A stretch of 64,000 bases of DNA from Candidatus Magasanikbacteria bacterium CG1_02_41_34 (GCA_001871445.1 MNVD01000011.1:29382-93381), one strand, 5' to 3'; shown: positions 19,718 to 50,021, counted from the first letter of the stretch. The notes: a model not told the origin generated them from the letters alone. Translations and numbers: made by a program.

Positions 19718-19754
19718 TACAGTACTATTCTTATACTCGTGAAGCATAGATACT

Positions 19755-20777
19755 ATGAAAAAAGCACTTATTACAGGTATTACCGGTCAAGATGGCTCTT
19801 ATCTTGCTGATTTTCTTTTGGAGAAGGGATACGAAGTACATGGTATTATCCGTCGTTCGAGTAGTTTCAATACTGAACGAATTGACCATATATACAAAGA
19901 TCCTCATGAAAAAGGTGTGAAGATGTTTTTGCATTATGGAGATTTGGCAGACGCGAGTAATATCGAACGTATTTTGAAGAAAATCAAGCCAGATGAAGTA
20001 TATAATCTTGGAGCACAAAGTCATGTTCGTGTAAGTTTTGATATCCCTGCCTATACTGGAGATGTTGTCGGGCTAGGGACACTGCGATTACTTGAGGCAA
20101 TTAGAAATTCAGGTATTGATACAAAATTTTATCAAGCGTCTAGTTCTGAAATGTTTGGAAAAGTTCAGGAAACTCCACAAAAAGAAACAACGCCATTTTA
20201 TCCACGTTCACCATATGGATGTGCAAAAGTTTTTGCCTATTGGACGACGATAAATTATCGTGAGAGTTATGGAATGTTCGCATGTAATGGAATTCTTTTT
20301 AATCATGAATCACCTCGACGTGGAGGAACATTTGTTACAAAAAAGATTGTAGACGGTCTCATACACATAAAAGAAGGAAAACAAGACACCCTCTTTTTAG
20401 GGAACCTTGATGCAAAACGTGACTGGGGATACGCAAAAGAGTATGTAGAAGCCATGTGGCTTATGTTACAACAAGATACTCCTGACGATTTTGTCATAGC
20501 CACAGGAGAGACACATAGTCCACGTGAGTTTGTAGAAGAAGCCGCAGGATTGCTGGGTTTTGATATTGAATGGAGAGGAGATGGACTCAAAGAAAAAGGT
20601 ATTGATAAAAATAGTGGAAAGACGATTATTGAAATTGATCCAAAATATTTTCGTCCAGCTGAAGTAGATTTACTTATTGGGGACGGGACAAAAGCAAAGA
20701 ATATGCTCAATTGGGAACCAAAAGTGAAGTTTAAAGAGTTGGTTAAAATTATGGTGGAGGAAGGAATCGGGAAATAG
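19755..20777 (+). CDS. gmd: GDP-mannose 4,6-dehydratase
   Basis: '[47 protein letters not shown]'. Also '[10 protein letters not shown]' (the YxxxK motif) and 'NHESPRRG'. Confidence 0.9.
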
Positions 20778-20783
20778 TTATAT

Positions 20784-21698: not shown

Positions 21699-21704
21699 AT
21701 TACT

Positions 21705-22640: not shown

Positions 22641-22644
22641 TAGT

Positions 22645-28793: not shown

Positions 28794-30206
28794 ATGAACA
28801 GATATTTTGTAGAGTTTGAAAACAATATTACTTCACAGTGGGGTGAAGATGGTATTCTTGAAGAAATTTTTAGGCGGATTGGTGATGGAACAAAAATGGC
28901 CATTGAATTTGGTGCGTGGGATGGGAAGCATTGTAGTAATGTTTGGAACCTGTGGAACAACAAAGGGTGGTCAGCAATATTGATAGAATCTGAGGAAAAA
29001 AGAGTTGAAGAATTAAAGCAGAATATTGAAGGATTTGATAACGTAATACCTGTACACGCTTTTGTAGAAACTGAGGGTGATAATACGTTGGATAAAATTC
29101 TTGGCAAGTATCTGCCCGGGAAAAAGGTTGATTTACTTTGTATAGATGTAGATGGAGATGATTATCATATTTTGGAATCAATTGAAACAATAAAACCGCG
29201 TGTAATTGTTATTGAATATAACCCCACTGTTCCTCCACACATAGATATTGTACAAGCAGAAGGTGAATATTTTGGGGCATCTGCAAAAGCTTTGAATAGA
29301 CTTGCGACAGACAAGGGATATGTATTGGTAGATATCACTTCTACTAACATGATTTTTGTAATTGATGATGAATTTCAAAAGATTGACATATCTAGACAAA
29401 CGGTGGATGAACTCTTTGACAAAAGTTTGCTGACTTATGTTATTAGTGGATATGGAGGCTATTCTTTCTTAACTCGTTTACCAAGATTTTCCAATTTTTT
29501 CCAGTTTCGTCGTAAGAAAAAGGTTGGTTTGTCTATACGTGATAAAGACACTTCATGTATTCCCGTTATTATTCGTAGGAATGAATCAATGCTTGCTTTT
29601 GTGAGTAAACGGTTCCATGTCCCCGGTACAAAAGTCACATGGCATCGTGTGTTGGTCCGGTTGATTAATAAAAAAAGAGAATTAAAATTCAGATGGACTC
29701 ATTACAAGAAGCAGAAGACTATACGAGCATATCAAAAAAAATATGATATAAGTACGATGCTTGAAACGGGTACCTATAAAGGGGACATGGTATTTAAGAT
29801 GCGTAATGTATTTAAGAAAATTTATACAATAGAATTAGGGAAGAAGTTGTACGAAGATGCTTGTGTTCGTTTGAAAGATTTTTCTCACATAACATTACTT
29901 CATGGAGATAGTGGAGAAAAAATTACTGAAATACTAACTTCTATAAAAGAACCGACATTGTTTTGGCTTGATGGACATTATTCCGGTGGTGAGACAGCTT
30001 TAGGAAATTTGGAAACGCCTGTGATTGCGGAGTTAAAAAGTATACTAAAACATCCTGTCAAAAATCATGTGATTTTAATTGATGATGCTCGTTGTTTTAA
30101 TGGGGAAAAGGATTATCCCACAATGAAAGAGCTTACTGCTTTAGTTACCCAATTTTCAAATTACACATTGGAGGTTAAGAATGACATAATTAGAGTAGTT
30201 AATTAA
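28794..30206 (+). CDS. Two-domain methyltransferase: an FkbM-family N-domain plus a class I (TylF/macrocin-OMT-like) C-domain
   Basis: The N-domain reads 'MAIEFGAWDGKHCSNVWNL...LLCIDVDGDDYHILESI'. The C-domain reads 'LETGTYKGDMVFKM...LHGDSGEKITEIL...LFWLDGHYSGGET...HVILIDD'. Confidence 0.5.
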   Translation: MNRYFVEFENNITSQWGEDGILEEIFRRIGDGTKMAIEFGAWDGKHCSNVWNLWNNKGWSAILIESEEKRVEELKQNIEGFDNVIPVHAFVETEGDNTLDKILGKYLPGKKVDLLCIDVDGDDYHILESIETIKPRVIVIEYNPTVPPHIDIVQAEGEYFGASAKALNRLATDKGYVLVDITSTNMIFVIDDEFQKIDISRQTVDELFDKSLLTYVISGYGGYSFLTRLPRFSNFFQFRRKKKVGLSIRDKDTSCIPVIIRRNESMLAFVSKRFHVPGTKVTWHRVLVRLINKKRELKFRWTHYKKQKTIRAYQKKYDISTMLETGTYKGDMVFKMRNVFKKIYTIELGKKLYEDACVRLKDFSHITLLHGDSGEKITEILTSIKEPTLFWLDGHYSGGETALGNLETPVIAELKSILKHPVKNHVILIDDARCFNGEKDYPTMKELTALVTQFSNYTLEVKNDIIRVVN

Positions 30207-33235: not shown

Positions 33236-34285
33236 ATGAAACCAACAGTATATATAACCGGTGGATCAAAAAATCCAAGCGGCGGAACAAAAGTCATGAA
33301 TGAATTGACTAATCTTTTTATTGAAAAAGGTTTTGAAAGTTATGCTGTAACTTCAGACGATAGTGGTCCAGCAAGTTTTTTGGAAAATCCCGCCCCTACG
33401 TTGAGTATAAATGAATATGAAAATGGGCTAAAAGAGGATGACATCACGATTGATTTTTGGCCTACCAAGAGATTTTTTAATATATCAAGTAGAAAAAAAA
33501 ATAAGAGAAGAGTTTTTTGGCAGCATGGGGCATCCATACCCATAGGAAATGAATTCGCGGGAGAAGATGTTTTTAAAAAGGGGAACCCCTATACACACCA
33601 TTGGAATGTGAGTAGTGCGTGCGCTGATTATATTGAGTATGCGTATGATTTAAAAAATATTGATATTGTTCATCCATTTTTTGATACAGACATAATGAAA
33701 AAATTTGTTGCAGAAAAAGATAAGCATTCACGAGAAGGGTTCTTAATTTTAGCTAGACGAGGACAAAAGTATATACCAAAAATCATTAAAAAATTTGGGA
33801 CAACGCAAAAAATTACAGTGATGAAACCTCCGTTTCATGAAAAAGATTTCTTTGCACAATTGTTAACGCACGAATTTTATATTTCCGTGGATGATGGCAT
33901 ACACAATGTTATATTAAAAAATAAAATAAAAACAGAAATAAAAAAAATAGTTAATAAAGATTTTAGGATTAAAGAGAATTCAAGAAACAACTGGATAATC
34001 CCAAAAGGTAATTTATTGGGTTTTCCGATGCCACCTGTCGAAGCTGCCTTGTTGGGAACGGTTGTCATTGGTTTTGCTATGGGTGGTGGATTGGAATGGA
34101 TGAATGATAAAAATTGTTTTTTAGCAAAAGATAAAAATGAAAAATCGTTATTTGAAAATATTGAAAAAGCAATTCAAACTCCTTTGCCTGATTTACATAT
34201 AACCAAAGAACAATCTTTTAAAGATATACAAAAGTTTACTAAGACACATACATGGGATCAGATTACTAATTCATTATCTTTATGA
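33236..34285 (+). CDS. Hypothetical, possibly a divergent GT-B glycosyltransferase
   Basis: N-terminus 'VYITGGSKNPSGGTKVMNELTNLF'. The C-terminal segment 'PVEAALLGTVVIGFAMGGGLEWMNDKNCFL' is weakly GT-B-like. Confidence 0.3.
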   Translation: MKPTVYITGGSKNPSGGTKVMNELTNLFIEKGFESYAVTSDDSGPASFLENPAPTLSINEYENGLKEDDITIDFWPTKRFFNISSRKKNKRRVFWQHGASIPIGNEFAGEDVFKKGNPYTHHWNVSSACADYIEYAYDLKNIDIVHPFFDTDIMKKFVAEKDKHSREGFLILARRGQKYIPKIIKKFGTTQKITVMKPPFHEKDFFAQLLTHEFYISVDDGIHNVILKNKIKTEIKKIVNKDFRIKENSRNNWIIPKGNLLGFPMPPVEAALLGTVVIGFAMGGGLEWMNDKNCFLAKDKNEKSLFENIEKAIQTPLPDLHITKEQSFKDIQKFTKTHTWDQITNSLSL

Positions 34286-35082
34286 TTAAAAAAATTATTA
34301 AACAATTTTTTGGATATTTTGGCTTTGATTTGATAAAAAGAAAGAATGTCGAGAGGAAAACTATGTCGGGTATATTGAAGCAGATTTCCAAACAGTGGCA
34401 GCCAGATGTGGTTGTGGACGTTGGGGCAGCTTTTGGTGAATGGTCAAAAGAATGTTATAGTGTATTCCCCAAAGCAAAATATGTATTATTGGAGCCTTTG
34501 GAAGAATACAATAAACCCCTGACAAAAGTTAAAAATAAAATTACAGATTCTATATTTTTGCCAGTAGCCGCTTGCCCTCAAAATGGTAAAATCAATTTTC
34601 ACGTACACGAAGACTTGGTTGGATCTTCGTTAAAAAATGAAACAGAAGGACCGGAAGTTGATGGTAAGGTCAGGATTGTAGAAGGTAAGACTTTGGACAA
34701 TGTCTGTAGTGAAAATGAATTGCAAGGAAATTTTTTAATAAAGATTGATGTTCAAGGAGCGGAATTGGATGTTCTTCGGGGTGCACAGCATATGTTAGCT
34801 AATACACAGTGTGTTATTTTAGAGGTCTCATTTTTCAAATCTTTTGTTAATGCTCCAGACGTATATGAAGTCATTATATTTATGAAAGAAAAAGGTTTTG
34901 TTATTTACGACATAGGTTCTTTTTTATATAGACCTTATGACGGAGCATTGTCTCAGACTGATATGGTTTTTGTAAGAGAAACAAGTATACTCAGAAAATT
35001 TCATGGGTATGCAACTCCAGAACAACGAAACATTCAGAACGATAAATTTAAGAAGCAACGCAATTCGTTTTATGGTATATAA
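34282..35082 (+). CDS. FkbM-family methyltransferase
   Basis: 'VVVDVGAAFGEWSKE', '...LIKIDVQGAELDVLRGAQHML'. It overlaps the upstream gene by 4 nt. Confidence 0.6.
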   Translation: MIKKIIKQFFGYFGFDLIKRKNVERKTMSGILKQISKQWQPDVVVDVGAAFGEWSKECYSVFPKAKYVLLEPLEEYNKPLTKVKNKITDSIFLPVAACPQNGKINFHVHEDLVGSSLKNETEGPEVDGKVRIVEGKTLDNVCSENELQGNFLIKIDVQGAELDVLRGAQHMLANTQCVILEVSFFKSFVNAPDVYEVIIFMKEKGFVIYDIGSFLYRPYDGALSQTDMVFVRETSILRKFHGYATPEQRNIQNDKFKKQRNSFYGI

Positions 35083-37371: not shown

Positions 37372-37995
37372 ATGAAAAAATATATAAAAAAAATTACACT
37401 TAAAATCTTTAAAATTTTTGGTATAACAAGGAAAAGAATAGCTTTTCCTATGTTTCGTCATGATATATATTCACAAAACGGAGAGGACGGGATTGTGGAA
37501 TTTATAATTAAAAAAATTCCTTCTTTACCAAAGTATATAATTGATATAGGGGCAAATGATGGTGTGTTGGGAAGTAACAGTCGTTTGTTGATAGAAAAAT
37601 ATAAGTTTGGGGGCCTATTAGTTGAGCCATTTAGCGAGGCGTTCAAAAAATTGGAAGAATTATATGCACATAATGATAACGTAGAGATAAGTAATTTTGC
37701 AGTTGGCTGTGAATCTACCATTGAGGGCAAAATAAATTGGCATGGGCATTTTTCGCAAATGAAGTCTCAGATTGTTAATATCAATGATTTGTTGTCGCAA
37801 TATAATATCCCAAAAGATATAGGATTTTTGTCTATAGATATTGACGGAAATGATAACGATGTTTTATCAGCGATAGACTGGACGGAATACTCACCCATAT
37901 TTGTTATTCAGAGATTGATTCTTCGTCTGACAAGAATTTACAAGAACAAATCAATATTATGGACGACGCGGGGTATTTACCTATGCTTCATATAG
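37372..37995 (+). CDS. FkbM-family methyltransferase
   Basis: 'YIIDIGANDGVLGSNSRLL', '...FLSIDIDGNDNDVL'. Confidence 0.55.
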   Translation: MKKYIKKITLKIFKIFGITRKRIAFPMFRHDIYSQNGEDGIVEFIIKKIPSLPKYIIDIGANDGVLGSNSRLLIEKYKFGGLLVEPFSEAFKKLEELYAHNDNVEISNFAVGCESTIEGKINWHGHFSQMKSQIVNINDLLSQYNIPKDIGFLSIDIDGNDNDVLSAIDWTEYSPIFVIQRLILRLTRIYKNKSILWTTRGIYLCFI

Positions 37996-38099
37996 GAAAT
38001 GTGTTTTATTGTAGAAAAGAGTATAGTGGTAGATTCTTTTTTAATTGGAAATTGAAATTGGAAAATGAATTTGGTTTTTTTAAGCAGTAGCAATTTAGT

Positions 38100-38999
38100 A
38101 TGTCTGAGAAAAAATACCCCAAAATTACATTGGTGACAACTTGCTATAATCATGCAGATTTTATTGCAGAGACAATTGAATCTATTCTATTCCAAGAATA
38201 TCCCAATTTAGAATATATTGTGATAGACGACGGAAGTACTGATGGAAGTTGGGATATTATACAAACATATAAAGATAAGCTTACTGTATGTGAGCACATG
38301 GATGGATATAGGACAACACCCACAATAGCGCTTAATTATGCGATAAAAAAAGGGACAGGGGGAATAATGGGGTGGTTAAATAGTGATGATATTCTTTTAC
38401 CTGGAAGTTTATTTCGGATAGCTCAAATATTTACCGATAATGAAAACGTTGAATGGCTTACTGGAATGGCAAGTACAATTAATATTAAATCAGAACTTGT
38501 TAATTCTACATTGCGGTTAAAAAACAAATATGATTTTTTAATTGGAGATTGGAAAATCATTCAACAAGAGTCCACTTTTTGGCGTAGATCTCTTTGGGAT
38601 AAAACGGGAGGGACTCTGTGTAAAGAATGGGCATTTGATACAGAGCTATGGACACGTTTTTTTATGGAAACAGATCATTATCATGTGGATGTTCCGCTCG
38701 GTGCTTTTAGAAAAGGGCCACAGAGCAAAAGTGTAAGTGATGAAAAATCTTTTTTGGATCCGAGTGAAAGACATTTATCTAAAATGAGAGAAAAAACACG
38801 TATCAAGGATAAAATATATACAGTTTTGTATGTTGTATGTAAAAAGGTATTTTGGCCAGTGTTGGCTATAATTCCTTCTTCTTGGTATGTTCGTGTCCCT
38901 ATTTTGAATATATTTAGTTATACGTTGCTGAAGTATTCATTTAGTAAGGCTAAATGGTGTGAAAAAAGAATTAATCCTTTTAAAACTAAATTTTTATAA
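38100..38999 (+). CDS. GT2-family glycosyltransferase
   Basis: 'KITLVTTCYNHADFIAETIESILFQEYPNLEYIVIDDGSTDGS'. A DxD-type motif follows ('NSDDIL'). Confidence 0.7.
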   Translation: MSEKKYPKITLVTTCYNHADFIAETIESILFQEYPNLEYIVIDDGSTDGSWDIIQTYKDKLTVCEHMDGYRTTPTIALNYAIKKGTGGIMGWLNSDDILLPGSLFRIAQIFTDNENVEWLTGMASTINIKSELVNSTLRLKNKYDFLIGDWKIIQQESTFWRRSLWDKTGGTLCKEWAFDTELWTRFFMETDHYHVDVPLGAFRKGPQSKSVSDEKSFLDPSERHLSKMREKTRIKDKIYTVLYVVCKKVFWPVLAIIPSSWYVRVPILNIFSYTLLKYSFSKAKWCEKRINPFKTKFL

Positions 39000-39337
39000 A
39001 GATCGCAAAAAGTTTTCTGTAGAGGAATATGATCAATCATTTGACGAAAGTTATGCAGATGCTTTTATAGAGAGTTTTTCTTTGAACACCTCGAAAGTAC
39101 TGAATTGTAAACTATCAAAATCATGAGAAGGCCAGACTATTGCTATGGCACAACTCAGTACATTTCTCGGCCGTGTATAGCGCAAAACAAATATAACCTG
39201 ATACCAATTTGATTTAAGAGAGTTAAATCGAGTGCATCTGGGGGGTGGGTAGCTTGATTTATTGCCTCTGTCCGAGTAGACTGTGTATATAACAAGTTGG
39301 GTAATCTACAGAGATAGTCCAAGTAATATACCTACAT

Positions 39338-39763
39338 GTGGACAGTATAACAGTCAATAATTCAGGAATAATTAGTCTCCAAACGTTCAAAGATGGTTTT
39401 GATGGTATTTTGTCTATTGCTGAGTCTGGGAAACAAATTCCTTTTGATGTAAAGTGCACATATTATATTTATAACTTAGTAAACCACGAATCTGTCGTGC
39501 GTGGTAAACATGCTCATAAGTCTCTCAAACAGGCAATCTTTTGTATCAACGGTTCATTTACGTTGTCCCTTGATGATGGTGAGAGTAAACAGGAGATCAT
39601 AATGGATAACCATGGTGTAGGTGTGTATCTTGGACCGGAGTTGTGGCACACAATGACAAATTTCAAGAATAATTGTATTTTGCTTGTGTTGGCATCAGAT
39701 TGGTATGATGAGTCTGACTACATACGAGAGTATGGTGAATTTCTTGCATATATAAAAAAGTAA
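39338..39763 (+). CDS. FdtA/WxcM-like cupin. The family is that of NDP-4-keto-6-deoxyhexose 3,4-ketoisomerases.
   Basis: '[43 protein letters not shown]...[10 protein letters not shown]'. The start is a GTG at 39338 and is uncertain. Confidence 0.55.
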
Positions 39764-39764
39764 T

Positions 39765-40850
39765 ATGATTCCATTTGTCGATTTTAAAACTCAATATAAT
39801 AATTTGAAAACTGAGATAGATAAGGCCGTTCATCGAGTGCTTGACAGTGGGTGGTATATCTTGGGAAATGAGGGAATAGCTTTTGAACAGGAATTTGCTT
39901 CGTATGTAGGTACAACATATTGTGTGGGTGTCGCTTCTGGTACAGAAGCGATTGCTCTTGGTCTTATGGCGCTTGGAATAGTTCACGGTGATGAGGTTAT
40001 TACCACAAGTCTCACCGCATATCCAACAATCACGGCAATTGTTCAGTCCGGAGCAACCCCAGTACTTGTTGATATACATACTGAAGATGGTCTGATAGAT
40101 GTTTCAAAAATTGAACAACACATTACATCCAAAACAAAAGCAATAGTCCCGGTTCATCTTTATGGGCAGAGTTGCGACATGGATGCCATCAAGATTGTTG
40201 CAGACAAGCATGATCTTATGATAGTAGAAGATTGTGCTCAAGCCGTAGGTGCCTTATACGAGGGGAAAAAAGTTGGATCGATAGGAGAATGTGGTGCATT
40301 TTCTTTTTATCCTACGAAAAATCTTGGTGCGTATGGTGATGGTGGAGCTATTACTACAAATAACGAGGAATTATATAATCGATTGCTCGCAATGAGAAAT
40401 TATGGACAAACCTCTCGTTACTCACATGATAGTGCGGGGATTAACAGTAGACTTGACGAAATGCAAGCAGCAATATTGCGTGTCAAACTCCTTCATTTGG
40501 ATAAGGATAATAATAGACGGAAAAGTATTGCTCAAAGATATAAAAATGAACTTGTTGGAGTTGAGACACTTTTAGAGCGGACGTATGGTGAAGGTGTGTA
40601 TCATTTATTTGTAGTAAAGACAGACAAAAGAGAGGAATTCATGAAATATATGGAGGAGAATGAAATTAAGACGTTAATTCATTTTCCAATGCCAATTCAT
40701 GCACAAAAAGCATTTGTATGGGAAAGGGATGACGAATATACAAATGCGACTCAGTTTGCAAGCATGATAGTAAGCATTCCTATATATCCAGAATTGGAAG
40801 ATGACCAAATCGATACAATAATTTCAACTATTAATGCCTTTGATAATTAA
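39765..40850 (+). CDS. DegT/DnrJ/EryC1/StrS-family PLP-dependent sugar aminotransferase
   Basis: '[10 protein letters not shown]', '...[44 protein letters not shown]', where the Lys falls in the 'YPTKNLG' motif. Confidence 0.85.
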
Positions 40851-40853
40851 CAT

Positions 40854-41774
40854 ATGCGTGTCTCCATTGTTATCCCTGTCTATAATGGTTCTGAAAGTAT
40901 AGAGAGACTAGTAAGTGGGCTGGTAGAAAAAGTTGGTTCTTTGTATGATTTAGAAATTGTACTAGTAAATGATTTTTCGCCAGATAACTCAAGAGATGTT
41001 TGTGTGGACGTACAAAAACGGTTTTGTAAAAATGTTAAATTTTATAGTTTGGCCAAAAATGCAGGAGAACACAACGCAGTCATGGCAGGTCTCAATAAAT
41101 GTACAGGTGACTATGCTATCATCATGGATGATGATTTTCAAAATCCAATTAGTGAAGTAATAAAACTTATTACATACATCAGTGAACATGATTACGATGT
41201 CGTATATACATATTATGAAGAGAAAAAGCATTCACGTTTTCGTAATTTAGGAAGTTCTTTTAATGACAAGGTCGCAAATATAATGCTTCAAAAGCCAAAA
41301 GATTTGTACCTCTCCAGCTTCAAGGTGATAAACCGGTTTACGATAAATAATATAATTTCATACAAGCTACCTTTTCCATATATTGATGGACTTATCTTAC
41401 GTACGACACGTCATATTGGAAAGCTCAAAGTGGAGCACGCAGCTCGCGAGGTAGGGAAATCGAATTATACACTCAAAAAATTGGTATCATTGTGGTCCAA
41501 CATGTTTATCAATTTTTCTATATTACCACTTCGCATCATGGTCGCTGTTGGATTTCTTTTTGCAGCATGTTCTTTTATTTTTGGAGTATTTGTCGTGTAT
41601 GAAAAATTTACAGACCCGTCACTTCCTCTTGGTTATCCATCACTCCTTATTGCGATTTTGATGTTGTCAGGTATTCAATTAATTTCTATTGGGGTCATGG
41701 GTGAATATATCGGACGTATGTTTTTATCACAAAATAAAACTCCTCAATATACTATAAGAGAGTCATTTGAATAA
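40854..41774 (+). CDS. GtrB/ArnC/CsbB-like polyprenyl-phosphate sugar transferase. It is a GT2 enzyme with a C-terminal TM anchor.
   Basis: The GT2 N-terminus is 'VSIVIPVYNGSESIERLV...IVLVNDFSPDNS'. The DxD-type motif is 'IIMDDDFQNP'. The C-terminal part has two TM helices, 'FSILPLRIMVAVGFLFAACSFIFGVFVV...LLIAILMLSGIQLISIGVMGEYI'. Confidence 0.7.
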   Translation: MRVSIVIPVYNGSESIERLVSGLVEKVGSLYDLEIVLVNDFSPDNSRDVCVDVQKRFCKNVKFYSLAKNAGEHNAVMAGLNKCTGDYAIIMDDDFQNPISEVIKLITYISEHDYDVVYTYYEEKKHSRFRNLGSSFNDKVANIMLQKPKDLYLSSFKVINRFTINNIISYKLPFPYIDGLILRTTRHIGKLKVEHAAREVGKSNYTLKKLVSLWSNMFINFSILPLRIMVAVGFLFAACSFIFGVFVVYEKFTDPSLPLGYPSLLIAILMLSGIQLISIGVMGEYIGRMFLSQNKTPQYTIRESFE

Positions 41775-41785
41775 TAGTACTGTTT

Positions 41786-42529
41786 ATGGAAAAGTATGAA
41801 TATGATGCAATGTATAAATATGAGAATAATCATTGGTGGTATTTGGTATTGGATGATTTGATAAAGAAATATTTAGATAATAAAATCAATGATGACAAAA
41901 TTAATACCCTTCATATTTTTGATGCAGGATGTGGAACAGGGAGGATGATAAAATTGTTGAGTTCCTATGGTGAAGTTCATGGGATCGATTTTTCTGAAGA
42001 GGCAGTTAATTTTTCAAGGAAAAGAGGGTGTAAAAATGTAAAAAAGGAAGATTTAAATAAGTGGAATCCAAAAAATGAAAAGTACGATGTCATTACCTGT
42101 CTAGATGTACTTTACCATTCAAATATAAAAGATGATCTAGATGTGATGAAAGTTTTTTATAGAGCTCTAAAATCAGATGGAATTTTGATAATGAATGTAC
42201 CTGCGTTTGATTTTTTAAAAAGGAACCATGATTTAAAGGTTTCTACAAAAAAGAGGTATATAAAAAAAATACTTAAAAATAATTTAAAAAAAATAGGTTT
42301 TAAGATAGAAATACAGACATATAGATTACCTCTTCTTTTCTTTGTTATTTCGTTTAAAAAAATAATCGAATTTTTTCTAAAATCAACGGATGAAACATCG
42401 GAGTTAAAAGAGTTGCCAACTTTTTTCAATCGATTATTATTTTTTGTACATAGATTAGAAAATAGAATTATATTAAGTAGAGTATCAATTCCCTTTGGAA
42501 GCTCTGTGTTTGTTGTCTGTCGAAAATAA
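41786..42529 (+). CDS. Class I SAM-dependent methyltransferase
   Basis: 'IFDAGCGTGRMIKLL', 'YDVITCLDVLYH'. Confidence 0.6.
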   Translation: MEKYEYDAMYKYENNHWWYLVLDDLIKKYLDNKINDDKINTLHIFDAGCGTGRMIKLLSSYGEVHGIDFSEEAVNFSRKRGCKNVKKEDLNKWNPKNEKYDVITCLDVLYHSNIKDDLDVMKVFYRALKSDGILIMNVPAFDFLKRNHDLKVSTKKRYIKKILKNNLKKIGFKIEIQTYRLPLLFFVISFKKIIEFFLKSTDETSELKELPTFFNRLLFFVHRLENRIILSRVSIPFGSSVFVVCRK

Positions 42530-42552
42530 ATATTAGAGATAAATATAACATT

Positions 42553-43179
42553 ATGAAACATAATATATTAGAAATAATAAAGAAAATAATACATGAATTA
42601 GCTGAAAGACCTGTTATTTTTAATTTACTTCGTCGTATATTGGAATTTAACTATAGAGGAGAAAAAAGAGTCATCCGAGATGAAATTACTGTGTATGATC
42701 GAGTACTTGATTTGGGTTGCGGAACTGGAGAACTTTGTAAAGAATTTATCTCAAAAAAATATGTAGGAATTGATTTAAATGATTTATATATACGATATGC
42801 TAAAGAGAAATATCCTGATTATATATTTGAAACAATGGATGCGACTCAATTGCAGTTTTCTGATAATAGCTTCGATACCATATTAATTTCAGGGGTTTTA
42901 CATCATTGTAATAACGAAGTTGCGATGTCCATTTTGAAAGAAGTACATAGGGTCTTAACACCAAATGGTAAAGTAATTATATGGGAAGATGCGTTGACAT
43001 GTAGTAAGATGAATATAGTAGGTCGGGTAATTCAAAAATTAGATGAAGGTGAACATATTTTAGATAAGGACGGTTATCTCAATCTTTTTCATTTATATTT
43101 TAAAATCACTAAATCATACAACATGGTCAGTGGTTTTTGTGATTACCATGTATTTATTTTGGAAAGTAAATCTAATTAA
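42553..43179 (+). CDS. Class I SAM-dependent methyltransferase
   Basis: 'VLDLGCGTGELCKEF', 'FDTILISGVLHH'. Confidence 0.65.
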   Translation: MKHNILEIIKKIIHELAERPVIFNLLRRILEFNYRGEKRVIRDEITVYDRVLDLGCGTGELCKEFISKKYVGIDLNDLYIRYAKEKYPDYIFETMDATQLQFSDNSFDTILISGVLHHCNNEVAMSILKEVHRVLTPNGKVIIWEDALTCSKMNIVGRVIQKLDEGEHILDKDGYLNLFHLYFKITKSYNMVSGFCDYHVFILESKSN

Positions 43180-43196
43180 AATCTATCAATTCATTT

Positions 43197-45320
43197 ATGA
43201 TAAAATTTCAAAATATAATGAAAAAAATTAGACATATACGGGATCCCAGAATCATTTTTTTGATAGTAACTGTCTTTTTTTGTTTTGAATATTTTATTTT
43301 GGGTCCTTTTTCTTATGCACGCATTGGAGACAATCTAGATAGTTTTGTAATAAGAGCTGTAGTATATTGGCAGAGTATGTTTCGCGATGGAATGATGAGT
43401 TATTGGCTTCCTTATTTTACTGGTGGCATGGACAGACTATCAAATATGTCTTCGTTTGGTGAAATAGGTAATTTATTATATATTTTTCCTGCATGGTTTG
43501 CCTCGGCAATTGTTATTTTATCTTCAGTTTTTTTTGGAGGGTATTATACTTTTAAGATTGGTCATGAAATTTTGGATTTGGATAAAAAAGCTAGTCTTAT
43601 CGCTGGTATTTTATTTTCATCGTTTTTTGTCATTCAGGATCTCAAACCGTTTATGTTAGGGATCGTGGTGTTGCCATTTACTTTATTTTTTTTAGAAAAG
43701 ATATTTTTTAACAAAACTTTTTCTTTATTTAAGAAAAGTATACTTTTCCTCATATTAGGAATCGTGTTTTCGTCTTTTTCGTCTATTACATTAACCATGC
43801 CTTTTGTGGCAATTGCAATAGTAGTTTGGTTTACTCTAGTTAGAAAACAAAAAAATTTAATTTTTTATTTATTACTTTCCATTTTTTTTCTTTTGTCTTT
43901 TCTATTGAAATCTCAAGAGATTTGGAGTTTATTTATTAACACACCATTATCTCGCCGTAGTGCTGAATCATTGTATTATAAAGCAGACCTAAGTCAATTA
44001 TTATCTGAGCTTAGAAATACTTTTAAGACTAACAGCATCGCTCTTCTCATAGTTTTTTTTGGATTTTTTCTTTCGAAAAAAGATAAATTATTTATTATAT
44101 TAATGACTATCTCTCTAGTGTTTATGTTATTACCTACATTTTTTCCAATATTATCAGGTAGTAATTTTGGAAGAGTGTTAGGTCCTTTTCGTAATTTTGG
44201 TTTTAAGTGTTTATATCTTGTTTCTCCTTTATTTTTTTCTTTGGCGGCTGGATACGTATTTAATTATTTTAAAGATACAAGAGCTAGTGTGTTTCTACAA
44301 AAGACCAATAAAGATTACTTATTTTACATACAGAATATCCTAATTTCGATTACTTTGGTTCTGGTTGTTTTTGTAAATTTTTCTATAAAAACGAATCATT
44401 TTTATGTCTGGTTGAAAACTGGTGGATATTATGCAAATACTCACAGTCCTGATGTGTCAGCGTTGGTTGATAGAGAAAAAAATTCTTTACCTTATCGCGT
44501 TGCAATCATAAGTCCTAAATCTTATAAAAGTCTTTATCCCTTTTTATCAAATTTTTATGGATTGGAAACTTCTGATGCTTCCACCGACGTGATGCCACAA
44601 AGAATTGATGAATTTTTTAGGATTATGTCAAATGCAGACACTCGGACATCCCAGTATTTTTTACCAGATGTTGATAGCCAAACAGCAAAGAAAATGATGA
44701 CAAATTTTGATTTGAATAATTTGGTCAATACATCACTTATGTCGTTATTCAATGTGAAATTTGTCTTGACTGACCATATCATCAATTCTGACGGTTTTGA
44801 ATTAATTCAGACTCCTAGCGTGAGTGAATGGAAATCATGGACAGACATGAAAGAATCGGAGAAAATTAAACTTAAATTGGAAGAAAATTTTTTTGGCAAA
44901 AAATTATTAGTGTATGAAAACAAAAATTCTTTTCCAAGATTTTTTTTGGCAAAAAAAGTGGAATTTTTTGATACAGATAATGATCTCTTGAATGCCTTAT
45001 CAGATGCTGATATAAAAAGATTGAGAGAAACTGTTTTTTTGTTAAAACAATACACTGACAAAATTCCTGAAATGAATGGTGTCGATACAGATGTTGATGT
45101 CATAGAATATTCAAATGATAAAATAAAATTGAAAGTTGAAACTGATGGACCATCTGTGTTAGTCATTAGTAATAATTTTACTCCTTTTTGGGAAGTCTAT
45201 GTGGATGGGGTAAAGAAAGAGATAATCCCAGCCTACCATGCTTTAATGGCTGTATCGCTTGAGAGAAATAATAATGAAGTAGAATTAATCTATAAACCTC
45301 CATATGTAGTAAAATTATAG
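43197..45320 (+). CDS. Large polytopic membrane protein, likely a GT-C-fold glycosyltransferase (YfhO- or GtrC-like), with a C-terminal soluble domain
   Basis: 707 aa. There are about 12 TM helices in the first 400 aa or so, followed by a roughly 300-aa hydrophilic C-domain. It sits between a GtrB-like gene and a GtrA-like gene. No family-specific motif was confirmed. Confidence 0.45.
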   Translation: MIKFQNIMKKIRHIRDPRIIFLIVTVFFCFEYFILGPFSYARIGDNLDSFVIRAVVYWQSMFRDGMMSYWLPYFTGGMDRLSNMSSFGEIGNLLYIFPAWFASAIVILSSVFFGGYYTFKIGHEILDLDKKASLIAGILFSSFFVIQDLKPFMLGIVVLPFTLFFLEKIFFNKTFSLFKKSILFLILGIVFSSFSSITLTMPFVAIAIVVWFTLVRKQKNLIFYLLLSIFFLLSFLLKSQEIWSLFINTPLSRRSAESLYYKADLSQLLSELRNTFKTNSIALLIVFFGFFLSKKDKLFIILMTISLVFMLLPTFFPILSGSNFGRVLGPFRNFGFKCLYLVSPLFFSLAAGYVFNYFKDTRASVFLQKTNKDYLFYIQNILISITLVLVVFVNFSIKTNHFYVWLKTGGYYANTHSPDVSALVDREKNSLPYRVAIISPKSYKSLYPFLSNFYGLETSDASTDVMPQRIDEFFRIMSNADTRTSQYFLPDVDSQTAKKMMTNFDLNNLVNTSLMSLFNVKFVLTDHIINSDGFELIQTPSVSEWKSWTDMKESEKIKLKLEENFFGKKLLVYENKNSFPRFFLAKKVEFFDTDNDLLNALSDADIKRLRETVFLLKQYTDKIPEMNGVDTDVDVIEYSNDKIKLKVETDGPSVLVISNNFTPFWEVYVDGVKKEIIPAYHALMAVSLERNNNEVELIYKPPYVVKL

Positions 45321-45366
45321 TGTTCAATTTATTTATTCAAATAGGAGTTTTTAGTAATTATTACTA

Positions 45367-45777
45367 ATGATAAAACATATAATGAAAATTATCAGTCCTC
45401 AATTAATAAGATTTATATTCGTTGGAAGTGTAAATATGGTTTTGAGTTATAGTATTTTTTTGATATGTATTTATTTTTTTTATTTTCATTATACTTTAGC
45501 TCTTATCGTTGAATATTTTTTTGGTATTCTAAATAGTTATTTTTGGAATAGAAGATGGACTTTTAAGAGTGATGGTAATGTCAAGAAGGAAATTAGAAAA
45601 TTTATTTTTGTATATCTCGTGATGTTTGGTTTAAATTATGTATTACTTTCTATATTTATAGACTTGATTAATATGAGAGTTTTTTTTGCACAAATGGTAG
45701 CTATAATAATTATTACCCCCGTAACCTTTTTAGCTCATAAAATGTGGTCTTTTGTTAAGAAAGAAACACACAATTAA
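45367..45777 (+). CDS. GtrA-family small membrane protein (a polyprenyl-P-sugar flippase component)
   Basis: 136 aa with 4 TM helices. The N-terminus 'LIRFIFVGSVNMVLSYSIFLICIYFF' resembles the GtrA 'F..VG...t..d' start. Confidence 0.6.
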   Translation: MIKHIMKIISPQLIRFIFVGSVNMVLSYSIFLICIYFFYFHYTLALIVEYFFGILNSYFWNRRWTFKSDGNVKKEIRKFIFVYLVMFGLNYVLLSIFIDLINMRVFFAQMVAIIIITPVTFLAHKMWSFVKKETHN

Positions 45778-45781
45778 TTTT

Positions 45782-46612
45782 ATGAATCCTCTTATCTCAG
45801 TAATTATGCCATGTCACAGTGATGGGCTTTATATAGCACAAGCTATTAAGGCTGTACAAGCTCAGACGTACACCAATTGGGAGCTTATTATTGTTGATGA
45901 CCATAGTATTGATAATACAGCAAAAATTGTAGAATCATTTGTAAAAGATGATACGAGAATTCGTTATGTATTTTTGGAAGAAGAAGATACGGAGCGAATT
46001 AATAAAAAAGGAGACAATATAAATGCTGGATGGCTTGCGCGTAATTATGGCATGTCTTTGGCAAATGGTGAACTTATTACATTTCAAGACGCAGATGATG
46101 GATCACACACAAATCGTTTTGAAATTCAATTGTATGGGATGGAAAAATATAAAAGTGATCATGTCGTTGTGGATTGGCGTAAGTATAGTGACGATTTAAA
46201 TGAAACGGTATATGATGTGGATATAGATACTTTGCAAGTGATCGATACAGACACTATTTTGAAAACTGTACAAAAAAATAAAAAAGGATTTTTTAAGTAT
46301 CCATTTTCAAGAAATGAAGATAACAATTACTTATCATCAGTTGCTCATAGGTTTGATAGAAAATATTTGAGATCTTGGGACTCGTATCCTTTGGCAGCAA
46401 GTATGCCATTATTTAGACGCTCTGTGTTAGGCGAAGTCCGTTTTAGGCAGTTATATGAGCGTGTCTGGCCATCAGGAAGAGGACGAGGCGCTGATAGAGA
46501 TTTTAATTTTTGGCTTGCAGAGACTTGTAAAACAAGTATAGGACTTGAAGTTCCATTGGTGTTGTGGCGTCATAATGGTTTAGATAATAAAAAATATGTA
46601 GATAGAAATTAG
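45782..46612 (+). CDS. GT2-family glycosyltransferase
   Basis: 'ISVIMPCHSDGLYIAQAIKAVQAQTYTNWELIIVDDHSIDNT', '...FQDADDGS'. The ATG at 45782 lies just after the GtrA stop. Confidence 0.7.
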   Translation: MNPLISVIMPCHSDGLYIAQAIKAVQAQTYTNWELIIVDDHSIDNTAKIVESFVKDDTRIRYVFLEEEDTERINKKGDNINAGWLARNYGMSLANGELITFQDADDGSHTNRFEIQLYGMEKYKSDHVVVDWRKYSDDLNETVYDVDIDTLQVIDTDTILKTVQKNKKGFFKYPFSRNEDNNYLSSVAHRFDRKYLRSWDSYPLAASMPLFRRSVLGEVRFRQLYERVWPSGRGRGADRDFNFWLAETCKTSIGLEVPLVLWRHNGLDNKKYVDRN

Positions 46613-46613
46613 T

Positions 46614-47702
46614 ATGAAAAAAACAAAAATACTATTTATATTTCGTACACCAATGGAAAACATCGGGCAAATTAATGATGGAAAAGTCGATGAGCCTGCA
46701 GAATTTTTATGGGGTATGAAAGATTTGGATCGTTCAATATATGATGTACGTTTTATAAATGCCCCTCGTTTTGGTAAGCGAACAGGTATACGTAGATTCA
46801 CATGGATTTTTGAGGTGGTATTTGCGAAGTATGTCCGTATAGGATTGCCTATAGATATATATTTGAAATATAAAAAAGATATTGTTTGGGCAGATGAAAT
46901 AGTATGTACATATGATCAGGTGTCTATCGGTATATTATTTTGGCGTTTATTCGGCTTTCTTAGAAAGAAAAAAATTCACGCAATTGTAATGAGCTTATCT
47001 GAGCGTATCGTATATTTTAAAAACATTTATCCATTGAAATGGTTTGTTTCATTGCTGTTGCGTCAAGCTGATACTATATTAACTCTTTCAGATGTGGCCT
47101 CACAGGCGATTGAAAAAGAATACGGTGTAGAACGAACAAAAATATATACATGGTATTTTGGGATCGACATTGATTTTTGGAAATCAAAAAAAGAAAATAT
47201 GATATATGATATCATGTCTATTGGAAATGATATGAATCGTGATTTTGAGACACTTATCAGTGCTATTTCATCTGATGATAAGGTAGTTCTTGTGACTAAA
47301 AAAAATATTAGACAAGTGCATAATGATGCGGTTACCGTACTTTCTGGTATTGAGAATACAGAAGTAAGAGAATTATACAATAAGTCTCGTATTATTGTTA
47401 TACCAAGTATTGCCCTAAAAACAGAATCTGCTGGATTAAGCTGTTTTTTGCAAGCACTTTCTTGTGAGAGACCTGTTATTATATCGGATTCACCACCTTT
47501 TAGAGAAATATTTAAAGATGGTATGCATTGTCTTTTTTATATCCCTGGTTCGGTAGATGATTTACGTAAAAAAATTGAATTGTTGAAGAATGATGAAAAA
47601 TTAGCCAAAAAAATAGCAACACAGGGTTATGAATTAGTACGTAATAGGTATACTTGCAAAGACATGTCTAATCAGTTAGACTATCTATTCAAACATAGGT
47701 AA
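46614..47702 (+). CDS. GT4/GT-B glycosyltransferase
   Basis: The C-terminal region 'KTESAGLSCFLQALSCERPVIISDSPPFREIFKDGMHCLFY' is GT4-like (E-x7-E). Confidence 0.65.
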   Translation: MKKTKILFIFRTPMENIGQINDGKVDEPAEFLWGMKDLDRSIYDVRFINAPRFGKRTGIRRFTWIFEVVFAKYVRIGLPIDIYLKYKKDIVWADEIVCTYDQVSIGILFWRLFGFLRKKKIHAIVMSLSERIVYFKNIYPLKWFVSLLLRQADTILTLSDVASQAIEKEYGVERTKIYTWYFGIDIDFWKSKKENMIYDIMSIGNDMNRDFETLISAISSDDKVVLVTKKNIRQVHNDAVTVLSGIENTEVRELYNKSRIIVIPSIALKTESAGLSCFLQALSCERPVIISDSPPFREIFKDGMHCLFYIPGSVDDLRKKIELLKNDEKLAKKIATQGYELVRNRYTCKDMSNQLDYLFKHR

Positions 47703-49103: not shown

Positions 49104-50021
49104 ATGTCAACCTATCTCATCACTGGGGGCGCAGGCTTCATTGGAACAAATCTTACAAAGCAGTTATTGGAAGAAGGGCATACTGTTCGCATTATTGATA
49201 ATTATGCAGGAGGTAAAAAGGAAGAACGTATACAAGAAGGAGCAGAATATATAGAAGGAGATATACGTGACTTTGATATGCTCCTTCGTGTAATGGATGG
49301 AGTGGATGGTGTGTTTCACATGGCAGCACTGCCACGAGTAACATTTTCTGTTGAACATCCTTTGGAAACGCATGATGTAAATGTAAATGGTACCCTCAAT
49401 GTCTTTTTGGCGGCAAGAGATGCTGGAGTAAAAAAAGTAGTGTTTTCTTCATCCTCTTCTACATACGGTGATCTCCCAAAAGAAATGTATCCTGTCAAAG
49501 AAGAGGGTGTTGTCAAAATGCCTCTTGCACCATATGCACTGCATAAGTTCATAGGAGAACAATATGCACGTATTTTTTCTTCATTGTATGGTCTCAAAAC
49601 AGTCTCTCTCGTGTATTTCAATGTGTATGGTCCTTATGCTGATCCAAATGGAGCCTATGCGCTCGTGATCGCAAAATTTCTTCAACAAGTAAAAAATGGT
49701 GAGCCGATGACTATTTGTGGTGATGGAGAATATTATCGTGACTACACACATGTATCTGATATTGTACGAGCAAATATTCTTGCCATGACATCAGATACTG
49801 TGGGGAAAGGAGAGACTATCAATATTGGAAATGACAATCCGCATTCAGTCAATGACATTGTGAAGCTTATTGGTGGAGATTCTGTGAATATTGATCCACG
49901 TCCAGGAGACGTTAGGTTTACACAAGCAAACATCACAAAAGCAAAGCAACTCCTTGGGTGGAAGCCTACTGTTGAATTAGTAGATGGGATTGCAGAATTA
50001 AAAAAAGAATGGGAAGTGTAA
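49104..50021 (+). CDS. NAD-dependent nucleotide-sugar epimerase/dehydratase (SDR). It is probably a UDP-hexose or uronate 4-epimerase.
   Basis: 'YLITGGAGFIGTNLTKQLLEEGHTVRIIDN', 'YALHKF' (the YxxxK motif), '...SSSTYGD'. Confidence 0.8.
   Translation: MSTYLITGGAGFIGTNLTKQLLEEGHTVRIIDNYAGGKKEERIQEGAEYIEGDIRDFDMLLRVMDGVDGVFHMAALPRVTFSVEHPLETHDVNVNGTLNVFLAARDAGVKKVVFSSSSSTYGDLPKEMYPVKEEGVVKMPLAPYALHKFIGEQYARIFSSLYGLKTVSLVYFNVYGPYADPNGAYALVIAKFLQQVKNGEPMTICGDGEYYRDYTHVSDIVRANILAMTSDTVGKGETINIGNDNPHSVNDIVKLIGGDSVNIDPRPGDVRFTQANITKAKQLLGWKPTVELVDGIAELKKEWEV

Follow-up and report, generated by a model that had tools for sequence, protein, structure and literature searches.

Gene content of the locus

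The window, by which we mean the whole 64,000-nucleotide stretch of DNA analysed here, comes from Candidatus Magasanikbacteria, which belongs to the Candidate Phyla Radiation. Five ORFs that a sequence-only reading had reported at 40854-45777 were all found on the + strand where it had placed them, closely packed, with intergenic gaps of 3 to 46 nt. They encode an ArnC/GtrB-type polyprenyl-phosphate glycosyltransferase (GT2), two class I SAM methyltransferases (MT1 and MT2), a 707-aa GT-C-fold transferase and a GtrA-family protein. That reading described three genes of a GT2/GT-C/GtrA system plus two inserts. The three-component assignment held in every computational test proposed for it and the five ORFs were as described, but the boundaries were drawn too narrowly, as the module begins two genes upstream with an FdtA-type ketoisomerase and a sugar 3-aminotransferase. 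Family or fold was computed directly for each protein, and the assignments were strong for all seven, which counts in favour of the amino-sugar module proposed below. Operon structure was deduced from gene spacing only, and promoter and terminator scans gave chance-level results, which count against it.

The glycosyltransferases and the GtrA-family protein

The GT2 (306 aa, 40854-41774, + strand) matches PF00535 with 95.7 bits. Its closest solved relative is ArnC (9hwj), which aligns over the full length of the protein (residues 2-303 against 9-312, E 7.8e-38), and solved GtrB (5ekp) likewise aligns over the full length, at E 5e-31. The alignment covers the DxDxQNP and GEYIGR motifs, and the two TM helices and the DxD motif lie within it. 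The expected C-terminal double-TM anchor is present as two hydrophobic helices at about residues 230-248 and 264-282. Full-length NCBIfam matches were obtained to ArnC (1.9e-45) and PgfS (1.5e-44), both under the equivalog cut-offs. The architecture is common to both families, and orthology was rejected for ArnC (NF007986, 155.2 bits against a cut-off of 529) and for PgfS (NF047588, 152.5 against 500). The protein thus has the features of a GtrB/CsbB/ArnC-type component and is predicted to make a polyprenyl-P-monosaccharide.

The 707-aa protein (43197-45320, + strand) had been likened to GtrC or YfhO as a GT-C candidate. The GT-C fold was borne out, but by Pfam the protein belongs to DUF6044 (PF19510, 38.3 bits against a cut-off of 27, residues 18-479), a sister family of YfhO. 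YfhO itself (PF09586) scored 27.6 bits, below its cut-off of 28.5, and matched only C-terminal residues 631-704. A profile of the GT-C family gathered 491 representatives at E<1e-30 and reached YfhO-annotated proteins at about 1e-34, so we regard the protein as a relative of YfhO and not a member. Its AlphaFold2 model (pLDDT 94.5) consists of a helical membrane domain that ends near residue 408 and a soluble domain of mixed alpha/beta structure at 409-707, in agreement with the large soluble C-domain noted earlier; the model supports 11 to 13 TM helices, which makes the earlier count of about 12 a fair one. The C-terminal domain is predicted to be extracytoplasmic.

The fold is not that of a transporter: in a Foldseek comparison with the PDB, the top 13 matches were all GT-C enzymes, namely AftD (2.4e-6), STT3, AftA, DPY19 and, only in 12th place, ArnT, whereas the first transporter appeared at a probability of 0.06. 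The acidic first outer loop anticipated for a GT-C enzyme was also found: of 80 homologues, 85-94% have an acidic residue at the positions of D45, D48 and D79, and the loop motif is D45-N-L-D48. Two arginines, R254 (79/80) and R434, show little or no variation, and 99% of homologues have an acidic residue at position 457 (E457). As modelled, the protein is therefore a polytopic GT-C with an acidic first loop.

The last gene (45367-45777, + strand) encodes a 136-aa small membrane protein that aligns to GtrA over the entire profile (PF04138, 87.7 bits, positions 1-117 of 117), as the sequence-only reading had proposed. Its hydrophobicity scan gave overlapping segments clustered in two regions, at about residues 8-48 and 76-119. 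By family, this putative flippase is a candidate for the flipping component of three-component systems.

Predicted amino-sugar genes and the conserved methyltransferase

The two upstream genes lie outside the region first described. The first (39338..39763, + strand, 141 aa) encodes an FdtA-type NDP-4-keto-6-deoxyhexose 3,4-ketoisomerase (PF05523, 144.6 bits, above threshold). Its closest solved structure is FdtA (2pa7, E 3.8e-36), and the paired-histidine motif RGxHAHK is kept, with RGKHAHK aligning to RGFHAHK of 2pa7, which places the protein among the FdtA/QdtA cupins with the HxH motif. The second (39765..40850, + strand, 361 aa) encodes a DegT-family sugar aminotransferase (PF01041, 390.8 bits). 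Its best solved relatives are 7b0d (383 bits), DesV (2oga, 334), QdtB (3frk, 321), WlaRG (5u1z, 299) and WbpE (256); the 4-aminotransferases perosamine synthase (187) and ArnB (179) score lower. By these scores it groups with the DesV/QdtB-like 3-aminotransferases. The window holds two Gmd-like genes in place of RmlA and RmlB, neither of which is present to provide dTDP-4-keto-6-deoxyglucose, and this counts against the amino-sugar module.

MT1 (41786-42529, + strand, 247 aa) and MT2 (42553-43179, + strand, 208 aa) each match several class I SAM-methyltransferase Pfam families above their cut-offs (Methyltransf_11/25/31 for MT1; Methyltransf_25 and _11, 76 bits, for MT2), and they share 26% identity across the SAM-binding core. 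MT1 has 848 homologues, the best 120 of which are 45-54% identical over about the full length. Residues E13, W17, W18, D46-G52, D68, D107, R146, H148, D149, R157, Y179, R180 and N226 are invariant, and the AlphaFold2 model (pLDDT 93.6) has a generic class I fold. The family is large, well conserved and tied to the aminotransferase-GT2 pair. In 9 of 10 MT1-family contexts from several phyla (Magasanikbacteria, Prolixibacteraceae, an assembly deposited as 'Proteobacteria bacterium' and other assemblies), the genes for the aminotransferase, GT2 and MT1 lie side by side, often with overlaps, in the order [FdtA or SDR]-DegT-GT2-MT1. Identity to the window proteins in these contexts is 43-72% for DegT, 52-82% for GT2 and 45-50% for MT1; the aminotransferase orthologues lie directly upstream of GT2-MT1 in eight loci besides the window, and FdtA adjoins the aminotransferase in the window and in four others (L001, L002, L007 and L013).

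This trio, a direct result of the gene-context comparison, argues for an amino-sugar route. FdtA and the aminotransferase keep their place beside GT2 and MT1 in different phyla, so that an amino sugar is the probable donor, by a logic nearest that of the Arn pathway. Consistent with this, the GT2 reaches 133.9 bits against ArnC, an enzyme that acts on an amino sugar, but 111.4 bits against GtrB. In three loci (L009, L010 and L012), the cassette stands alone with a polytopic membrane protein among unrelated genes, and the aminotransferase product therefore has no obvious consumer besides the GT2.

The same observations bear on a more classical explanation, in which side branches of a neutral sugar (Glc, Gal or GlcNAc) are attached by a Gtr/CsbB-YfhO-type system, a separate cytoplasmic repeat-unit glycosyltransferase uses the product of FdtA and the aminotransferase, and the methyltransferases, incidental in position, O-methylate the polymer or another sugar. 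FdtA and FdtB genes mostly serve cytoplasmic glycosyltransferases in O-antigen and S-layer glycan loci, and the window contains many cytoplasmic GT2 and GT4 genes. Moreover, all characterised GtrB/CsbB-type systems with a YfhO-like GT-C transfer one of these three sugars (PMC8035078, Table 1). The specificity of a GT2 cannot be read from its sequence, a point that favours this explanation and counts against an amino-sugar donor. Against it stand the trio being kept together across phyla, its stand-alone occurrence with no other glycosyltransferase nearby, and the higher score of the GT2 against ArnC than against GtrB, and we consider it quite improbable.

The suggested methylation of the donor sugar agrees with the conserved adjacency of GT2 and methyltransferase genes. 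In 6 of 7 contexts of close GT-C homologues, GT2 is followed by a small methyltransferase or methyltransferase-like gene and then by GT-C. The two methyltransferase genes between GT2 and GT-C are not equivalent, however: MT1 is a conserved member, whereas MT2, like GtrA, is a variable addition. Over some 14 kb surrounding the module, L002 and the window are colinear, which speaks for the proposed module, yet MT2 and GtrA are absent from L002 at this position. A search of L001-L013 found no MT2 orthologue, only generic matches of 21-30% identity to other methyltransferases, which suggests that MT2 is specific to the window locus. A 41% identical GtrA orthologue lies after MT1 in L007. Two sets of contexts count against the amino-sugar module: in three short contigs with close GT-C homologues (P0003, P0005 and L016), GT2-methyltransferase-GT-C occurs without FdtA or DegT directly upstream, and three loci with more distant GT-C homologues (L004-L006) are without MT1.

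The probable substrate of MT1 is the donor sugar. No N-acyl- or N-formyltransferase gene adjoins the cassette in 8 of 9 cases, which leaves the methyltransferase as the only candidate amine-modifying enzyme; the exception, L013, has a Formyl_trans_N gene two genes upstream of FdtA. The best solved matches of the MT1 profile are mostly N-methyltransferases (phosphoethanolamine N-methyltransferase, BamL, DesVI, TylM1 and CalS10), and the invariant D107 together with H111, conserved in 81%, aligns with the D-x-x-x-H of phosphoethanolamine N-methyltransferase. Against N-methylation, the matches to DesVI (2.9e-6) and TylM1 (about 2e-5) are confined to profile positions 30-134, so that the likeness to sugar N-methyltransferases lies in the SAM-binding core, and the sugar O-methyltransferases AtmM and RebM are fold matches of equal rank.

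One possible explanation for these mixed signals is that the lipid-carrier amino-sugar route operates as proposed while the methyltransferases O-methylate a hydroxyl of the donor, with the 3-amino group either left free and cationic, like that of Ara4N in Arn, or acylated by an enzyme encoded elsewhere. The occurrence of methyltransferase genes between GT2 and GT-C even where no aminotransferase adjoins fits this idea, as do several further methyltransferases in the locus, by which methylated sugars appear to be common in its glycan. By contrast, the lean of the MT1 profile towards N-methyltransferases, the retained D-x-x-x-H and a pathway order that mirrors Tyl1a-TylB-TylM1 speak for methylation of the amine. 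A further point against O-methylation is that, as established for ArnB and ArnA, the aminotransferase equilibrium would be unfavourable unless the amine undergoes an irreversible step. We find O-methylation somewhat doubtful and favour the 3-amino group as the site.

A proposed pathway and its relation to known systems

Taken together, these data make it fairly probable that the genes at 39338-45777, which all run in the same direction, work as a single module that uses a lipid-linked amino sugar for extracytoplasmic glycosylation. Most likely, their products synthesise an amino sugar, couple it to a lipid carrier in the membrane, flip it to the outer side and transfer it to a surface polymer. 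The interpretation that fits best is an Arn-like lipid-carrier route that handles a 3-amino-3,6-dideoxyhexose. In this route, FdtA would convert an NDP-4-keto-6-deoxyhexose to its 3-keto form, and the DesV/QdtB-like aminotransferase would produce the NDP-3-amino-3,6-dideoxyhexose. MT1, possibly together with MT2, would methylate the sugar, most likely on the 3-amino group by the logic of Tyl1a-TylB-TylM1 (mycaminose). We infer both the identity of this donor and the site and order of its methylation, for which the substrate may be the nucleotide sugar or the lipid-linked sugar at the inner membrane face; in either case, methylation probably precedes transfer of the sugar outside the membrane. 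The ArnC/GtrB-type GT2 would then place the sugar on undecaprenyl phosphate, GtrA would carry the lipid-linked sugar across the membrane, and the DUF6044 GT-C enzyme would transfer it to an acceptor outside.

The acceptor is probably the glycan of the surrounding Wzx/Wzy-like/WbaP locus, or a surface protein. Glycosylation of a surface protein instead of a polysaccharide (an S-layer protein, a pilin or the 1221-aa protein at 8053-11718), as by PgfS/PgfM of Streptococcus mutans or in protein O-mannosylation, touches the acceptor only and is compatible with the remaining steps. It would agree with the full-length PgfS match of the GT2 and with the presence in the window of genes for candidate large surface proteins and for two Wzy_C/TPR ligase-like proteins; Candidate Phyla Radiation bacteria are not known to have teichoic acids. 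We nevertheless regard a protein acceptor as unlikely, because the module lies inside a Wzx/WbaP-type glycan locus, in a position conserved in colinear L002, and no link was found between GT-C and any particular protein. The independence from the Wzx/WbaP route and the side-branch modification put forward in the sequence-only reading are conjectural.

The pathway had been described as phage/teichoic-acid-type. Its lipid-carrier, extracytoplasmic scheme stands, but the closest logic is that of Arn, not of phage Gtr glucosylation. Known three-component or multi-component transmembrane systems are GtrA-GtrB-Gtr* of Shigella and Salmonella phages and CsbB-GtcA-YfhO of Bacillus, Staphylococcus and Listeria. 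The module shares with them a membrane-anchored GT2 of the type that charges polyprenyl phosphate, a small GtrA-family membrane protein and a polytopic GT-C with an acidic first-outer-loop motif and an outer C-terminal domain (PMC8035078, PMC11127046). It differs in that its GT-C is of DUF6044 and not of YfhO proper or the Gtr* families, its donor is probably an amino sugar from two dedicated in-module enzymes, one or two methyltransferase genes lie between GT2 and GT-C, and its host is a Candidate Phyla Radiation bacterium. Compared with PgfS-PgfM1-PgfE-PgfM2 of S. mutans, both have polytopic membrane partners and the GT2 matches PgfS over its full length, but well under the equivalog cut-off (152 against 500 bits); no methyltransferase or aminotransferase is known among the Pgf components.

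The Arn pathway (ArnB-ArnA-ArnC-ArnD-ArnE/F-ArnT), which modifies lipid A, has a logic in common with the route proposed for the module: an NDP-amino sugar is formed by a DegT aminotransferase, loaded onto undecaprenyl phosphate by an ArnC-type GT2 and handed on by a GT-C enzyme on the far side of the membrane. We rejected identity with Arn proper, as the aminotransferase is of the 3-amino type and not ArnB-like, and the GT-C falls in DUF6044, outside the ArnT family. Where Arn uses Ara4N, the proposed sugar is a 6-deoxyhexose formed through FdtA; GtrA replaces ArnE/F; and the host is without lipid A. The module also has no formyltransferase or deformylase: among window ORFs of at least 150 aa, none carries a Formyl_trans or deacetylase domain. 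At the conserved accessory position there is a SAM methyltransferase. The module resembles the dTDP-mycaminose/desosamine and dTDP-Fuc3NAc/Qui3NAc pathways (Tyl1a-TylB-TylM1, DesV-DesVI and FdtA-FdtB-FdtC) in its succession of FdtA/Tyl1a-type ketoisomerase, DesV/QdtB-like 3-aminotransferase and ~250-aa SAM methyltransferase. MT1, however, is not detectably a member of the TylM1/DesVI family beyond the common SAM-binding core, and the proposed destination of the product is a lipid carrier and the cell surface, where those pathways supply a macrolide aglycone or a cytoplasmic O-antigen glycosyltransferase. The type of pathway is already known, whereas the present combination of genes has not previously been described.

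Layout of the module and its predicted membrane glycosylation enzymes

The sequence-only reading had proposed a three-component GtrB / GT-C / GtrA module with two intercalated methyltransferases at 40854-45777. All five of its ORFs lie on the + strand at exactly those coordinates, with spacings of 3 to 46 nt, and the kind of system proposed is borne out, as the GT2, GT-C and GtrA proteins pass sequence or fold tests. Its extent was drawn too short, because two upstream genes were left out: an FdtA-type 3,4-ketoisomerase gene (39338-39763) and a DegT-family aminotransferase gene (39765-40850) directly precede the GT2 gene, overlapping or abutting, and are part of the module. Exact-sequence look-ups assigned the window to Candidatus Magasanikbacteria bacterium CG1_02_41_34, of the Candidate Phyla Radiation (Patescibacteria), and found the module proteins deposited there under no names other than 'glycosyltransferase', 'class I SAM-dependent methyltransferase' or 'hypothetical protein'. 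DNA similarity searches with the region gave no plasmid match. Scans of 38000-47000 found promoters (54 sites against 49.6 expected) and terminators (2 against 3.2) at chance level and were uninformative on operon limits. A stretch of 340 nt without an ORF (38999-39338) separates FdtA from the GT2 gene before it (38100-38999), compared with 8 nt at the same junction of the colinear metagenome locus L002; the promoter scans were uninformative here as well.

The GT2 of the module (40854-41774) matches Pfam Glycos_transf_2 and aligns over its full length with the NCBIfam models ArnC (1.9e-45) and PgfS (1.5e-44), far under the equivalog cut-offs of both. Its nearest solved structure is ArnC (9hwj; E 7.8e-38, residues 2-303 against 9-312), followed by Synechocystis GtrB (5ekp; 5e-31). 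Alignment with the solved relatives extends to the catalytic D-x-D-x-Q-N-P stretch and to GEYIGR near the C terminus, where a hydrophobicity scan places a pair of helices (about 230-248 and 264-282). Together, these alignments, motifs and helices identify GT2, as judged from sequence, as a polyprenyl-phosphate glycosyltransferase of the ArnC/GtrB type, orthologous to no characterised enzyme.

The 707-aa protein (43197-45320) matches DUF6044 over residues 18-479 with 38.3 bits, above the Pfam threshold, and narrowly misses YfhO (27.6 bits against 28.5), the latter over its C-terminal 75 residues only. Word-indexed searches returned only seven close relatives, whereas an exhaustive profile search retrieved 491 cluster representatives at E<1e-30 and, with the limit relaxed to E<1e-3, over 20,000; a profile of 80 family members reached YfhO-annotated proteins at about 1e-34. 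The AlphaFold2 model based on that 80-member alignment (mean pLDDT 94.5, pTM 0.92) has a helical membrane domain, ending near residue 408, followed at 409-707 by a domain of mixed alpha/beta structure. In a Foldseek search of the PDB, the best 13 matches comprised GT-C enzymes exclusively (AftD, STT3 of yeast and human, AftA, DPY19 and ArnT), and transporters appeared at probabilities of 0.06 or less only. A basic N terminus precedes the first transmembrane helix (about 19-40). The first loop, which comes next, contains D45-N-L-D48 and G77-x-D79-R; among the 80 homologues, an acidic residue occupies the position of D45 in 93%, of D48 in 85% and of D79 in 94%. Conservation is complete or almost complete at R254 (79 of 80 homologues) and R434, and 99% have an acidic residue at position 457 (E457). 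The first-loop residues fit the 'DxD or modified DxD' hallmark of the GT-C enzymes of such systems (PMC8035078). Because the top fold matches are exclusively GT-C and the first loop is conserved and acidic, the protein neither lacks GT-C hallmarks nor resembles a transporter, and its assignment as a GT-C candidate stands. The 470-aa window protein at 28794-30206, which has no Pfam match, is unrelated to it.

The 136-aa protein at 45367-45777 belongs to the GtrA family, as had been suggested, matching the whole GtrA profile with 87.7 bits. The region between the first methyltransferase gene, MT1, and the downstream GT2 and asparagine-synthase genes behaves like a variable slot. It holds MT2, GT-C and GtrA in the window (42553-45777), where GC is lowest (0.28 against 0.34-0.43 in the surroundings), GT-C alone in L002 (9981-12134) and GtrA alone in L007, another Magasanikbacteria genome (7735-8119).

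Probable amino-sugar synthesis and the two methyltransferases

The FdtA-type protein scores 144.6 bits against PF05523 and retains the HxH motif, and its closest solved structure is FdtA (2pa7; 3.8e-36). The best relatives of the aminotransferase are solved 3-aminotransferases (DesV, 334 bits; QdtB, 321; WlaRG, 299; WbpE, 256), with far lower scores against the 4-aminotransferases perosamine synthase (187 bits) and ArnB (179). The usual substrate of FdtA is a dTDP-sugar; neither RmlA nor RmlB was found in the 64-kb window. Two genes resembling GDP-mannose 4,6-dehydratase, with a GDP-fucose synthase gene between them, lie at 19755-23613; one is a strong match and the other falls below the equivalog cut-off (341.6 bits against 415).

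Where the gene cassette occurs without FdtA, an SDR precedes the aminotransferase (L008, 4006-4986; L009, 3855-4850; L010, 1481-2461; L012, 2959-3954). These SDRs form a distinct family with mutual identities of 58-74%, and by eye they show VNGINK at the catalytic YxxxK position of extended SDRs, so that the tyrosine seems to be replaced by asparagine. The adjoining aminotransferases are still 43-60% identical to the 3-aminotransferase of the window. The window epimerase at 49104-50021 was considered as a counterpart of these SDRs and rejected at 26-31% identity.

MT1 (41786-42529, 247 aa) has 848 homologue matches; the best 120 listed share 45-54% of residues with it over roughly the full length. 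Its predicted structure (pLDDT 93.6) matches the generic class I methyltransferase fold, with phosphoethanolamine N-methyltransferases and sugar O-methyltransferases equally ranked, and so is uninformative on the substrate. The family profile, compared with the PDB, prefers the N-methyltransferases PMT, BamL/BpumL, DesVI, TylM1 and CalS10, over the SAM-binding core only. Arginines R146, R157 and R180 and the pair H148-D149 are invariant in the family. D107-x-x-x-H111 aligns with the D-x-x-x-H of PMT, which has a part in amine methylation next to phosphate, and by analogy this likeness is suggestive of amine methylation by MT1.

Both methyltransferases had been read as intercalated in the module; MT1 proved to be a core member, and MT2 (42553-43179, 208 aa) is variable, as is GtrA. 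No MT2 orthologue was found in the related loci, and MT2 has only the generic core in common with MT1. The N-terminal helix of MT2 (42595-42693, residues 15-47) resembles the conserved C-terminal helix of MT1 (42401-42490, residues 206-235; 39% over 33 aa, single-comparison E 0.001), which could reflect a permuted arrangement of one substrate-binding element. A 201-aa protein is encoded between GT2 and GT-C in the contexts of two close GT-C homologues, L016 (461-1066) and the contig of P0003 (2301-2906). The L016 protein matches class I methyltransferases below threshold (E 0.002-0.08), and its glycine motif is degenerate; for the gene on the P0003 contig, no Pfam hit is recorded. The product may be an inactive or divergent methyltransferase. 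Orthology between MT2 and the L016 gene was not supported, the two aligning at only 24% over 59 aa.

Conservation of the aminotransferase-GT2-MT1 cassette

L002 and the window are colinear between the UDP-glucose dehydrogenase gene at 36061 and the epimerase gene ending at 50021, and L002 keeps FdtA-aminotransferase-GT2-MT1-GT-C without MT2 and GtrA. Nine of ten MT1 contexts contain the order [FdtA or distinctive SDR]-aminotransferase-GT2-MT1, and one holds a solitary MT1 homologue. The hosts include another Magasanikbacteria genome, in which GtrA comes next, Prolixibacteraceae and a deposit labelled 'Proteobacteria bacterium' (L010); one cassette lies amid LPS-core-type genes (Kdo kinase and heptosyltransferase domains). 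Across these contexts, identity to the window proteins is 43-72% for the aminotransferase, 52-82% for GT2 and 45-50% for MT1. In several loci the cassette and a polytopic membrane protein stand alone among unrelated genes, which makes GT2 the sole plausible consumer of the aminotransferase product.

Scans of metagenomes and of genomes with the GT-C alignment gave three loci each, too few for co-occurrence statistics. On short contigs, close GT-C homologues follow GT2 and a methyltransferase or methyltransferase-like gene of 201-261 aa; more distant homologues adjoin other amino-sugar genes, without MT1. The polytopic proteins listed after MT1, at most candidates for a GT-C role, have 629 aa (L010), 470 aa (L008), 474 aa (L009 and L012), 574 aa (L007) and 435 aa (L001). 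Pfam scans of these six gave no matches except a weak PMT_2 in L001 (E 0.003), and for the two compared with the window GT-C (L010 and L007) the hhalign probability of relatedness was below 1%.

The order in L001, an 83-kb metagenome contig, is FdtA-aminotransferase-GT2-(435-aa membrane protein)-MT1-GT-C. At 2016-20258, two paralogous DUF6044 GT-C genes lie around its cassette, and the contig further carries a third, PMT_2-type GT-C with its own methyltransferases, a methyltransferase-GT2 fusion and a GtrA gene. These three GT-Cs and their associated genes amount to several neighbouring lipid-carrier glycosylation systems.

A possible pathway and its relation to known systems

In the pathway that we propose, FdtA would isomerise an NDP-4-keto-6-deoxyhexose, with dTDP and GDP as the candidate nucleotide carriers, and the sugar would then be aminated at C3. 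It would also be methylated, at an uncertain stage; analogy with Tyl1a-TylB-TylM1 makes N-3 the most likely site. The ArnC-like GT2 would transfer it to undecaprenyl phosphate, GtrA would flip it across the membrane and the DUF6044 GT-C would pass it to an extracytoplasmic acceptor. Around the module lie genes for a Wzx-like flippase, two Wzy_C/TPR proteins and a WbaP-type initiating transferase, along with many for cytoplasmic glycosyltransferases, so that the locus's own glycan is the most economical acceptor; a surface protein may be the acceptor instead.

At 5747-16846, an ECF sigma factor gene and a DUF5667 gene come before one for a 1221-aa protein without a Pfam match; next, a 218-aa ORF lies between the genes of two Wzy_C (O-antigen ligase-like) paralogues, which both have TPR repeats at the C terminus. 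This region could serve the same locus in the ligation of protein or glycan. An FkbM-type methyltransferase ORF (37372-37995) encodes 207 aa, compared with 266 aa in its paralogue (34282-35082), and has no counterpart at the L002 position; it may be truncated or recently inserted.

Three-component extracytoplasmic glycosylation shapes serotype, phage receptors and cationic-antimicrobial resistance. To our knowledge, what is added in nearly all studied cases is plain glucose, galactose, GlcNAc or pentofuranose, and the window locus points to a variant in which the sugar delivered is a modified amino sugar. One tentative possibility, which we consider rather unlikely as a whole, is that the trio forms an uncharacterised multi-phylum pathway in which an N-methylated 3-amino-3,6-dideoxyhexose (mycaminose- or ravidosamine-like) is displayed through undecaprenyl phosphate and a GT-C, methylation serving as the irreversible step in place of the transient N-formylation of Arn and yielding a permanently cationic decoration. 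Such sugars are so far known to us from antibiotics only. Should the donor be neutral instead, the locus would be an ordinary example of a common system.

The module has the same architecture as the three-component (multi-component) transmembrane glycosylation systems (PMC8035078; PMC11127046), all three defining parts having passed sequence or fold tests. The system type is well known, and the uncharacterised part is the conserved aminotransferase-GT2-methyltransferase cassette; its methyltransferase belongs to a family that is widely conserved and, across several phyla, closely linked with ArnC-like enzymes. In the library searched, no relevant paper was found on DUF6044 or on the coupling of a methyltransferase with ArnC-like enzymes. 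ArnD and the polyprenyl-P-ribose epimerases are precedents for modifying a lipid-linked sugar ahead of flipping (PMC11127046). The closest logic is that of the Arn pathway (aminotransferase, ArnC, flippase, GT-C), yet the module differs from Arn in every specific component, and a methyltransferase takes the position of formylation and deformylation. If the cassette makes a methylated cationic surface sugar, the Arn paradigm would no longer be confined to lipid A, and there would be a way into the cell-envelope chemistry of Candidate Phyla Radiation bacteria, of which almost nothing is known.
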